Below, one piece after another: positions 50,164 through 51,613 of a DNA stretch of 64,000 bases; within the stretch, counting starts at the first letter, position 1; each line of letters begins with the position of its first letter. The stretch lies in sequence record PQ511150.1. One strand, given 5' to 3'. The translations under genes were made by a program, and so were the position numbers. The stretch is from Escherichia phage NHEP29. The notes below the pieces were generated by a model. The model searched no databases. It saw only the letters and a list, made by a program, of their open reading frames with translations, and was not told the origin of the DNA.

Positions 50164-50712
50164 TTAACGAGCCCATTTAATGATTTCTGTAATCAAATAA
50201 TTACGTTCGCTTGCATTAAATCCTATAACTTTGTTAGCACCATCATGATTAAGTAATTGATACGTTTGGATTTTGTTATGAATTGCAAACTCTTCAAAAT
50301 ATGAAATGACTGTATTAAAACCGAATGAAGACAAAGTAATAAGGTCGTCTTCAAAACTTTCAGTCATTTCGTTACGTGTTAAAATAATTGTGAACACATC
50401 ATGGTTTTGGCAAAGACGAACATAATCCTGTTCATAAACGTCAAGAACCGAGTCCACATCTTGTCGAATACGTCCATAAACCCAGTTACTAATATATCCA
50501 CGGTCTAACAGATAAATCTTAGTAGGGTCTAAATAATTCAACATCGTTTCGAAACAGCCGACTTCATTTCGAGACTTAACATCGAAACGCCCATCAACTG
50601 TTCGTTTAGGGAAATCAATCTTTACATATCTTTCACTAATTTCCATTACATCATTAATGAAAGTTGTTTTACCAGCATTATCCGGGCCATCTACTAAAAT
50701 AATTTTAGCCAT
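50164..50712 (-). CDS. P-loop kinase, thymidylate/deoxynucleoside-kinase-like
   Basis: 182 aa; Walker A GPDNAGKTT and DRGYISNWVYG resembling the TMPK DRY…S…Y motif; at the T4 beta-gt position. Confidence 0.7.
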   Translation of the reverse strand: MAKIILVDGPDNAGKTTFINDVMEISERYVKIDFPKRTVDGRFDVKSRNEVGCFETMLNYLDPTKIYLLDRGYISNWVYGRIRQDVDSVLDVYEQDYVRLCQNHDVFTIILTRNEMTESFEDDLITLSSFGFNTVISYFEEFAIHNKIQTYQLLNHDGANKVIGFNASERNYLITEIIKWAR

Positions 50713-50713
50713 T

Positions 50714-51613
50714 TTATTCCTCGATTACGACATCTTCGTATTTAGGTATATTATACGGTGAAGAAATTAAAGCATTAAAGTAGATGAACTCACCAAGACC
50801 CGGATGGAATACTTCTTCAGGATTTTCGAAATATTGAATCTTCGGACGTCCTTTAAGAATTTGATAGTACTCAGTTTTAGTTGGATTAAAAATTCGAATC
50901 AGCGCTTCTTCAGGATACTTATTTCTGTCGAAACTATTATTTGGATCAGTTATATAAAGCGGTTGACCTAATTGAATTGCGCATTCAACCACTTGTTCAA
51001 AACGATAGCATGGGTCACTAATTCGAAATGGATGAAAAATACCATCTAGATGAATAGGAGCCAAATCACCTACAAGACGCTGCATGACGGAAGGACGTAT
51101 AACTTTCTGCGTTACGATAATCTTATTACCATCTGCACCTGCGTTAACCAGCACTTCTTTTTGACGTTCATTCAACACAGTAGTTTGAAGTGAACGATTA
51201 ACAGACAACATGTCGGTTTTTAAGAATTCATCAATATAAAAACGTGGTTTATTAGGGTCTGCAGTGATATTGAAATTGAATTCTACATCAAAAGCGCCGT
51301 CATATCCAGTGATATCTGTGATTAGAAAATCACAATCATAATAAGCAATTAATGAATCAACCACAAATTCATTTTCAGACCAGAAATATTTACGAGTGTT
51401 ATACGCGTTATCTTTATACCATAATGGAACAAACTTAAATTCTGGGAAAAGACGTTCACATTCTTTAATATCAGATGCATTACGTGGATATGTAATCACA
51501 TCACCCGGATTAGCACGGTGCAAATGAAGTTGGAAGTTGCCATCCTTAAGGATAGCATACTGTCCAGTTTCATAAGACCGCATACTCAAGATAGGTACGC
51601 GGAAAATAGCCAT
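50714..51613 (-). CDS. hypothetical protein (299 aa), possible transferase
   Basis: ORF translationally coupled between the kinase and gene 42; no firm motif. Confidence 0.55.
   Translation of the reverse strand: MAIFRVPILSMRSYETGQYAILKDGNFQLHLHRANPGDVITYPRNASDIKECERLFPEFKFVPLWYKDNAYNTRKYFWSENEFVVDSLIAYYDCDFLITDITGYDGAFDVEFNFNITADPNKPRFYIDEFLKTDMLSVNRSLQTTVLNERQKEVLVNAGADGNKIIVTQKVIRPSVMQRLVGDLAPIHLDGIFHPFRISDPCYRFEQVVECAIQLGQPLYITDPNNSFDRNKYPEEALIRIFNPTKTEYYQILKGRPKIQYFENPEEVFHPGLGEFIYFNALISSPYNIPKYEDVVIEE

Follow-up and report, generated by a model that had tools for sequence, protein, structure and literature searches.

Phage T4 carries segA and the beta-glucosyltransferase gene b-gt between uvsX and gene 42, and the question raised by the corresponding locus of Escherichia phage NHEP29 is what the two genes that stand in this slot do. 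We analyzed a window of 64,000 nucleotides from sequence record PQ511150.1, in which the two genes lie at positions 50164 to 51613 and encode a kinase of 182 amino acids and a protein of 299 amino acids. A preliminary description, made from the sequence alone, had placed a kinase resembling thymidylate kinases (TMPKs) and a 299-residue partner at the b-gt position. Indeed, both open reading frames (ORFs) are present on the minus strand (Table 1), and the order 41-40-uvsX-segA-b-gt-42-imm-43 of T4 is replaced in NHEP29 by 41-40-uvsX-kinase-299-residue protein-ThyA homolog. The gene pair is real but already catalogued, as gp45 and gp46:47 of phage RB69, within a published pathway, and sequence comparisons make it nearly certain that it belongs to this pathway, which leads to arabinosyl-5-hydroxycytosine. 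We favor a model in which the 299-residue protein would be the first glycosyltransferase acting on DNA and the kinase would serve the branch of C5-modified dCMP. We give the whole model a probability of about one half; the near certainty applies to pathway membership and not to the substrates assigned to the two proteins.

Identity and arrangement of the gene pair

NHEP29 belongs to Mosigvirus, and the 2.4 kb around the gene pair is 98.5-99.2% identical to many Mosigvirus genomes, among them JS09, Shf125875, and Bas46 ChristianSchoenbein. The kinase shares 97.3% identity with RB69p045 and 97.8% with the HY126 protein, and the 299-residue protein, which is 98-100% identical in Mosigvirus records, covers RB69p046 and RB69p047 together. 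Gene order from the arabinose-5-phosphate isomerase (API) to uvsX is the same as in RB69 and HY126, and there is no material difference between the NHEP29 pair and gp45/gp46:47 of RB69, gp78/gp79 of DLP3, or XAN60473/XAN60474 of HY126. Homologs with 24-100% identity are present in phage records for both the kinase (n=343) and the 299-residue protein (n=348) with a matching taxonomic spread, both proteins have homologs in metagenomes too, and they match the PHROG families phrog_761 (kinase, E 1e-44) and phrog_3891 (299-residue protein, E 1e-155). Hence, the two ORFs are real genes and did not arise by chance.

The stop codon of the ThyA homolog and the start codon of the 299-residue protein overlap in the sequence TAATG. 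The TAA stop codon of the latter gene is separated by 1 nt from the ATG of the kinase gene, which has GAGGAA just upstream. This overlap and the 1-nt spacing indicate that the three genes are close-coupled, in agreement with the coupling proposed earlier for the kinase and its partner. A scan of positions 49900-56200 for promoters and terminators returned sites no more numerous than in shuffled sequence, from which operon boundaries could not be drawn.

The gene pair is part of a 5-hydroxycytosine pathway

The neighboring ThyA-family gene had been taken for gene 42, and a role of the pair in 5-hydroxymethylcytosine (hmC) chemistry had been considered. This did not hold. The ThyA homolog has MRSQN where T4 gp42 has MRSND in the alignment, which corresponds to D169N (E. 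coli numbering), the signature criterion of 5-hydroxy-dCMP (5hodCMP) synthases (PMC13326640). It matches the structures of the HY126 enzyme (PDB 9iqc, 9ir2, and 9iqu; E 8e-161) and is near-identical to 9iqc. The RB69 ortholog, gp48, converts dCMP to 5hodCMP with flavin and O2 (PMC13326640). Judged by its sequence, the adjacent gene encodes a flavin-dependent 5hodCMP synthase and not a dCMP hydroxymethylase. Because the adjacent enzyme makes 5hodCMP on this assignment, the hydroxymethylated substrates suggested for kinase assays (hmdCMP and hmC-DNA) are the wrong ones.

For RB69, arabinosyl-hmC was the first proposal in 2018 (PMC6024577), which was revised by Lee et al. (NAR 2026, PMC13326640), who reported that RB69 DNA carries mono- and di-arabinofuranosyl-5-hydroxycytosine. 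Mosigvirus NP gives the same picture, with arabinosyl-5-hydroxycytosine in its DNA (Durham-collection paper). In RB69, the kinase gp159, which is of the T4 gp1 type, phosphorylates 5hodCMP to 5hodCDP, and gp51, gp52:53, and gp55 were assigned to the synthesis of UDP-arabinofuranose by analogy with AfhE and AfhF of HY126. Enzymes of the gp52:53/AfhE type are bifunctional sugar-1-phosphate enzymes leading to UDP-arabinofuranose, and UDP-arabinose pyrophosphorylase activity was reported for AfhE (PMC13326640). The same work lists gp45 merely as 'nucleotide kinase', from its fold, and gp46:47 as the hypothesized first arabinosyltransferase. The synthase, gp1-type kinase, and UDP-arabinofuranose steps have been shown in orthologs that are 97-100% identical, and the roles that we ascribe to the 182-residue kinase and the transferase are deduced from their folds, their invariant residues, and the linkage of their genes.

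The kinase has a TMPK fold and lies outside the curated TMPK families

The Walker A loop GPDNAGKTT and the segment DRGYISNWVYG, both named in the preliminary description, are in the kinase translation (residues 9-17 and 70-80). The structural model of the kinase (predicted local distance difference test, pLDDT, 89) has the three-dimensional fold of TMPKs, which are also its nearest solved folds, and the sequence contains the two TMPK motifs, a P-loop GxxxxGK[ST] and DR[YHF] after strand 3. In 28 homologs, the P-loop Lys and Thr (G9-PDNAG-K15-T16), an FPK motif, R42, R48, R71, and R113 are invariant, as is D70-R71-x3-S75-x3-Y79. When aligned with E. coli Tmk using MAFFT and intermediate sequences, the P-loop falls on GLEGAGKTT and DR-x3-S-x3-Y on the segment GDRHDLSTQAYQ/GDRHDLSTQAY; the intermediates were needed for the DR motif, and the C-terminal half of this alignment is unreliable. 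The profile of the kinase family aligned with E. coli Tmk at the P-loop only.

Profile searches, which had been proposed as a check, agreed with a TMPK-like protein at the level of phrog_761 and left the kinase outside the curated TMPK families: there was no match to PF02223 at E <= 0.1, and the score for TIGR00041 was 16 bits with a cut-off of 83. A profile search against the TMPKs in the PDB gave E 0.0076 and covered no more than residues 4-42, at the P-loop end, and sequence-only PDB searches with both proteins gave nothing useful beyond P-loop matches. P-loop position 12 is an invariant Asn, and the region 113-128 contains one invariant Arg (R113) together with the invariant D122 and D123. 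From known TMPK structures, and not from a superposition, we take position 12 to be the site of the P-loop Arg of type I TMPKs and residues 113-128 to be the lid. In comparison to TMPKs (EC 2.7.4.9; vaccinia 2v54 and E. coli Tmk), with which it shares 8-20% identity, the NHEP29 kinase appears to have a short acidic lid and an Asn for the P-loop Arg, and its link to cytosine-modification genes sets it apart from enzymes of thymidylate synthesis. Overall, the model and the invariant residues suggest that the protein is very probably an active nucleotide kinase, although it is not a demonstrable member of the TMPK family. The T4 gp1 deoxynucleoside monophosphate (dNMP) kinase is likewise a phage nucleotide kinase that handles C5-modified dCMP, as we predict for the NHEP29 kinase.

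The kinase travels with the synthase and the transferase

Fifty-six loci on viral contigs that encode homologs of the 299-residue protein (hereafter transferase homologs) were retrieved and, together with other loci, scanned with profiles. The kinase is present in all 48 loci with a close transferase homolog (E < 1e-100) and readable flanks, many of which are near-identical phages and hence not independent. There are three gene orders, synthase-transferase-kinase, HAD-kinase-synthase-transferase (Dhakavirus), and HAD-kinase-U32-synthase-transferase. In distant metagenomic phages (contigs of 356 kb and 168 kb) whose transferase is 36-38% identical, a kinase homolog lies immediately downstream in the order ThyA-transferase-kinase, and remoter transferase relatives (24-28% identity) mostly adjoin a small ORF with weak TMPK similarity.

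Among these remoter loci, the same trio is carried by the Rhizobium phage vB_RleM_P10VF of the Pootjesviridae (positions 13739-17293 of locus L072, corresponding to 113739-117293 of the record), whose cluster consists of a dNMP kinase of the T4 gp1 family (phrog_139), one ORF, a D169N ThyA homolog, a phrog_3891 transferase, and a TMPK-like kinase. A UDP-galactopyranose mutase is encoded elsewhere in the P10VF genome, and the P10VF relative RL38JI has galactose- and glucose-decorated 5-hydroxycytosine and a UDP-galactopyranose mutase (PMC13326640). As P10VF keeps the trio with a different sugar, the kinase appears to belong with the modification of the base and with the first transferase, and not with the activation of arabinose. 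We had considered that Pootjesviridae might lack a kinase of the gp1 type, which would favor the TMPK-like kinase as their 5hodCMP kinase, and rejected this idea when P10VF_175 proved to be the phrog_139 dNMP kinase. The preliminary description had also noted a second kinase beside a gp1-type dNMP kinase, and this was confirmed. The coexistence of both kinases in two phage families implies that the TMPK-like kinase is not a mere stand-in for an absent gp1-type enzyme.

This linkage bears on the simplest alternative, that the protein is a conventional dTMP kinase that raises the supply of dTTP and has nothing to do with cytosine modification. Such a role would agree with the fold and with the annotation 'thymidylate kinase' in RefSeq records and phrog_761. 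However, the kinase is found essentially only together with a D169N synthase and a phrog_3891 transferase, and it stays in the cluster where gene order is shuffled. In T4 and other glucosyl-hmC T-even phages, beta-gt occupies the slot and a kinase of this type is lacking, gp1 already provides T4-type phages with dTMP phosphorylation (annotation of the T4 record), and, as described above, the protein falls below the Pfam and TIGRFAM thresholds for TMPKs. We therefore regard a conventional dTMP kinase as very unlikely.

A profile-based survey of 1.8 billion representative protein sequences returned 286 proteins related to the kinase, at least five of which (P0179, P0180, P0184, P0187, and P0190; 314-357 amino acids) have a C-terminal HhH-GPD glycosylase domain of the MBD4 type; three more (P0194, P0196, and P0235) are of similar length. 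The fused domain matches MBD4 structures (E 1.7e-21) and conserves the position of the catalytic Asp. In locus L068, the fusion gene (5454-6425) lies between a D169N ThyA homolog on its upstream side and a transferase homolog on its downstream side; in L066, the contig begins at the fusion gene (127-1092), which has a transferase homolog downstream; and in L061, the fusion (6001-7074) occurs with a D169N ThyA homolog and API- and AfhE-like genes, with no transferase homolog in the stretch read. MBD4 excises deaminated cytosine derivatives opposite G. The fusions may point to repair of 5-hydroxyuracil or to a role of the kinase module at the DNA level. No MBD4-like domain was found in the 64-kb window.

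A DNA-level role is also the essence of a second alternative, already named in the preliminary description, in which the kinase acts on DNA in the manner of the 5-hydroxymethyluracil DNA kinases (5-HMUDKs; PF18748), by phosphorylating a base hydroxyl or by working together with a protein that flips bases. These, too, are small phage P-loop kinases in base-hypermodification clusters, where they work with DNA-glycosylase-like HhH proteins (PMC8989533), and the relatives of the NHEP29 kinase that are fused to the MBD4-type HhH-GPD domain (E 1e-15 to 1e-19) lie beside a D169N/ThyA-type gene in two of three contexts (L061 and L068) and beside a transferase homolog also in two of three (L066 and L068). 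However, the fused HhH domain differs from the amino-acid:DNA transferase type of HhH protein in 5-HMUDK systems. The kinase did not match the Pfam family HMUDK_HMUD1 (PF18748) at E <= 0.1, while gp54 of phage M6 matches with E 8e-18. A comparison of the kinase with M6 gp54 by hhalign gave a probability of 80% that covered the first 83 residues only and was led by the P-loop, and the kinase keeps the TMPK-type nucleotide-binding segment DR-x3-S-x3-Y, which M6 gp54 lacks. Moreover, phosphorylation of an aromatic 5-OH would serve no evident purpose, since the product retains the bridging oxygen. We therefore rejected membership of the 5-HMUDKs; these comparisons indicate that the kinase is not a 5-hydroxymethyl-dU DNA kinase, and action on DNA in general seems improbable.

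The kinase family is acidic, with a median isoelectric point (pI) of 5.0, which also speaks against action on DNA, though charge discriminates poorly. We had tried net charge and pI as a means to tell DNA-acting from nucleotide-acting enzymes and rejected it, because acidic enzymes also act on DNA: pI values are 6.1 for T4 alpha-glucosyltransferase (alpha-GT), 5.3 for DLP3-type second transferases, and 6.0 for the M6 amino-acid:DNA transferase. The median of the transferase family is 5.1, and T4 beta-glucosyltransferase (beta-GT) has a pI of 9.05.

The 299-residue protein is a predicted glycosyltransferase

The structural model of the 299-residue protein (pLDDT 95.4) has a GT-B fold, with two Rossmann-like domains and a cleft between them, and its structural neighbors are of the GT4 type. 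In 63 homologs, an N-terminal M-R-S loop, R197, D200, K246, and H270-P-G are invariant or conserved, and position 275 is acidic (E/D). The C-terminal domain thus keeps invariant Arg and Lys residues and an H-P-G-x-x-[E/D] segment, a pattern that fits nucleotide-sugar binding, in which the basic residues would contact the diphosphate and the acidic residue the ribose. The protein had no sequence match in Pfam, be it to Glycos_transf_1 or to similar families, in NCBIfam, or in the PDB, even with the 63-sequence profile.

T4 beta-GT was outside the top 60 matches of the protein, and homology beyond the shared GT-B fold was not found. This argues that the gene is a non-orthologous replacement of beta-gt and not a diverged copy. 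T4 beta-GT, with alpha-GT one of its nearest known counterparts, nevertheless shares with it the GT-B architecture and the genomic slot by a ThyA-family gene, and, as predicted for the 299-residue protein, the general job of T4 beta-GT is to glycosylate C5-hydroxylated cytosine in phage DNA. We predict that the 299-residue protein is the first, base-proximal arabinofuranosyltransferase acting on 5-hydroxycytosine. The earlier suggestion of a 'second transferase' thus agrees with this prediction as regards a transferase and disagrees as regards its rank, the second enzyme being the homolog of RB69 gp3 at 28828-29928.

A challenge to a transferase function comes from TH1_063, the homolog in Shewanella phage Thanatos (47.5% identity across 98% of the 299-residue protein), which was reported to form UDP-xylose from UTP and xylose-1-phosphate in vitro, as detected by liquid chromatography-mass spectrometry (PMC12838424). 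By this precedent, the 299-residue protein would be a UDP-pentose pyrophosphorylase that makes the activated sugar and would not transfer it. The GT-B fold is that of Leloir glycosyltransferases and not of nucleotidyltransferases, however, and the cluster already encodes a dedicated nucleotidyltransferase domain, whose HY126 ortholog AfhE is the reported UDP-arabinose pyrophosphorylase. In addition, Pootjesviridae keep a homolog of the 299-residue protein although their sugar comes via UDP-galactopyranose mutase. The pyrophosphorylase claim for TH1_063 fits poorly with the predicted fold and the dedicated enzyme, and we consider it improbable that the NHEP29 protein has this function.

Locus L052 (4443-6104) encodes a fusion of 551 amino acids with an N-terminal HAD phosphatase (AfhF-like, DFDG...GDD) and a transferase of the 299-residue type. 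The fusion gene has a D169N ThyA homolog on one side and API/AfhE-like genes on the other, and the 5 kb around it contain no kinase. We found no natural fusion of the kinase and the transferase; the long L052 protein combines HAD phosphatase and transferase.

Does the first sugar join the nucleotide or the DNA?

In the model that we favor, the ThyA homolog would convert dCMP to 5hodCMP with flavin and O2, as gp48 does, and 5hodCMP would be phosphorylated to 5hodCDP by the gp1-type kinase with the 182-residue kinase alongside, which is our default reading. The latter would be dedicated to the C5-modified dCMP branch, that is, to the base and nucleotide side and not to sugar activation. 5-Hydroxy-dC (5hodC) would be incorporated into DNA and glycosylated after replication, as in T4, which is the least certain step. 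The 299-residue GT-B enzyme would then use a nucleotide sugar to attach the first furanose to the 5-OH of 5-hydroxycytosine, and the gp3-type transferase would add the second sugar.

Several points weigh against this model. No enzymatic activity was reported for either protein in the literature covered, to which He et al. 2026 and Mahler et al. 2025 do not belong. With DNA containing 5-hydroxycytosine (5hoC-DNA), the DLP3 counterpart of the transferase gave no arabinosylation, and Lee et al. say that they cannot decide between the mononucleotide and DNA as the acceptor of the first sugar (PMC13326640). In E. coli, RB69 gp48 together with the gp1-type kinase sufficed for 5hodC to enter the DNA (PMC13326640), so that a plain 5hodCMP kinase role would make gp45 redundant; kinases that look redundant nonetheless coexist in two phage families. 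The kinase appears to lack the type I P-loop Arg (N12) and the Arg-rich lid of type II enzymes and misses the Pfam and TIGRFAM cut-offs for TMPKs, and the activity reported for TH1_063 (PMC12838424) is that of a UDP-xylose pyrophosphorylase.

Some of these points would be explained if the first sugar were added before replication. The 299-residue enzyme would then arabinosylate free 5hodCMP, the TMPK-like kinase would phosphorylate the bulky product arabinofuranosyl-5-O-dCMP, a substrate that may be unsuited to the gp1-type kinase, a glycosylated dCTP analog would serve the polymerase as a building block, and only later sugars would be added on DNA. Gene order would mirror reaction order. Indeed, synthase, transferase, and kinase are tightly coupled, and their order is kept in distant metagenomic phages and Pootjesviridae. 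The fold is that of a nucleotide monophosphate kinase, and the coexistence with a gp1-type dNMP kinase in both families suggests that the second kinase probably has a different substrate. The inactivity of the DLP3 ortholog on 5hoC-DNA also agrees with a nucleotide acceptor, the authors having left mononucleotide and DNA open (PMC13326640). On the other hand, every characterized glycosylation of phage DNA is post-replicative, namely, those by T4 alpha-GT and beta-GT, as is well established, and the DLP3 gp76/77 step (PMC13326640), and 5hodC readily enters DNA without the transferase or the 182-residue kinase. The gene order is not universal, as the kinase is upstream of the synthase in Dhakavirus and in loci L007-L009 and L027-L028 (best identity to the window transferase 69% and 51%, respectively), and the relatives fused to a DNA glycosylase domain hint at a role close to DNA. 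On balance, we consider a pre-replicative first sugar unlikely, although it is the main alternative to the model that we favor. No DNA hypermodification is so far known to proceed by glycosylation of a nucleotide before replication, and this route, if real, would be the first; it would also account for the constant presence of a second kinase beside the synthase and the transferase, even in phages with a gp1-type kinase and a different sugar.

Other genes of the cluster

Table 1. Positions of the gene pair and of related and neighboring genes in the NHEP29 window
Feature	Position	Strand	Basis or remark
gp41 helicase	47107-48549	minus	followed by gp40-like ORF
uvsX	48893-50065	minus	
TMPK-fold P-loop kinase (predicted), 182 aa	50164-50712	minus	ortholog of RB69 gp45 / HY126 XAN60473
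GT-B (GT4-like) glycosyltransferase (predicted), 299 aa	50714-51613	minus	ortholog of RB69 gp46:47 / HY126 XAN60474
ThyA-family 5-hydroxy-dCMP synthase (by sequence), 238 aa	51613-52329	minus	RB69 gp48 ortholog; Pfam Thymidylat_synt E 2e-15
79-aa protein	52372-52611	minus	RB69 gp49 ortholog; phrog_8601 E 3e-51; RB69p049 position
U32-family protein	52608-53768	minus	RB69 gp50 ortholog; Pfam Peptidase_U32 E 9.5e-11; weak UbiU match E 1e-3
HAD-type phosphatase	53823-54224	minus	RB69 gp51 / HY126 AfhF analog; phrog_1238 E 5e-43; function by analogy (PMC13326640)
Nucleotidyltransferase + APH-like kinase, 561 aa	54209-55894	minus	RB69 gp52:53 / AfhE analog; NTP_transferase E 8.5e-10, weak APH-type matches
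Arabinose-5-phosphate isomerase	56076-56711	minus	RB69 gp55 ortholog; Pfam SIS E 1e-10; annotated so in RB69 and HY126
DNA polymerase		minus	follows the SIS-domain isomerase in the listed gene order
Second GT-B arabinosyltransferase, 366 aa	28828-29928	minus	RB69 gp3/ORF003c ortholog; PDB 9iqz/9ir0 'phage HY126 glycosyltransferase' E 7.5e-250

The gp3-type second transferase (PMC6024577, PMC13326640) is near-identical to PDB 9iqz and had no Pfam match. It lies about 21 kb from the cluster, between an ORF of the size of rIIA (26309-28522) and an ORF at the position of gene 39 (topoisomerase). In the RB69 record NC_004928 (locus L002), the genes for the 299-residue transferase (p046/p047, 6099-6999) and the UDP-arabinose enzyme (p052/p053, 1816-3502) are each split; both are intact single ORFs in NHEP29, encoding 299 and 561 amino acids, which supports the published view that the splits in RB69 are sequencing errors.

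The U32-family protein, listed only as 'sugar or heterocycle reductase' by Lee et al. (PMC13326640), has 10 Cys residues that are invariant in 21 homologs, including a C-terminal CX4CX3CX2C motif. Other members of the U32 family, namely, RlhA (the enzyme that forms 5-hydroxycytidine in 23S rRNA), TrhP, and UbiU/V, are hydroxylases that work without O2. A possible role of the NHEP29 protein is to hydroxylate cytosine at C5 under anaerobic conditions, as a backup for the ThyA homolog, which depends on O2 and flavin. In the flanking stretches that were read, the U32 gene is present in Mosigvirus and several other clusters of Enterobacterales phages and absent from the Dhakavirus loci (L013-L017 and L022) and Acinetobacter-phage loci (e.g., L025, L026, L030, L046, and L048).

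In metagenomic clusters, genes of the flavin reductase type (Flavodoxin_2, FMN_red) adjoin the ThyA homolog or the kinase fusion (L004, 4715-5275; L061, 7068-7613), an association consistent with a 5hodCMP synthase that depends on flavin. The ORFs of the NHEP29 cluster showed no reductase domain in Pfam.

Implications

What remains of interest in this gene pair is modest and concerns the substrate of the kinase and the timing of the first glycosylation. The strict linkage of the kinase, which extends over two phage families and two sugars and persists beside a gp1-type kinase, sharpens the question of which acceptor receives the first sugar, the nucleotide or DNA, and the answer bears on the enzymatic synthesis of glycosylated DNA and on phage engineering. 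RB69-like phages are common among therapeutic coliphages, and the cluster accounts for their replacement of every cytosine by arabinosylated 5-hydroxycytosine, through which they escape restriction, CRISPR, and glycosylase defenses.

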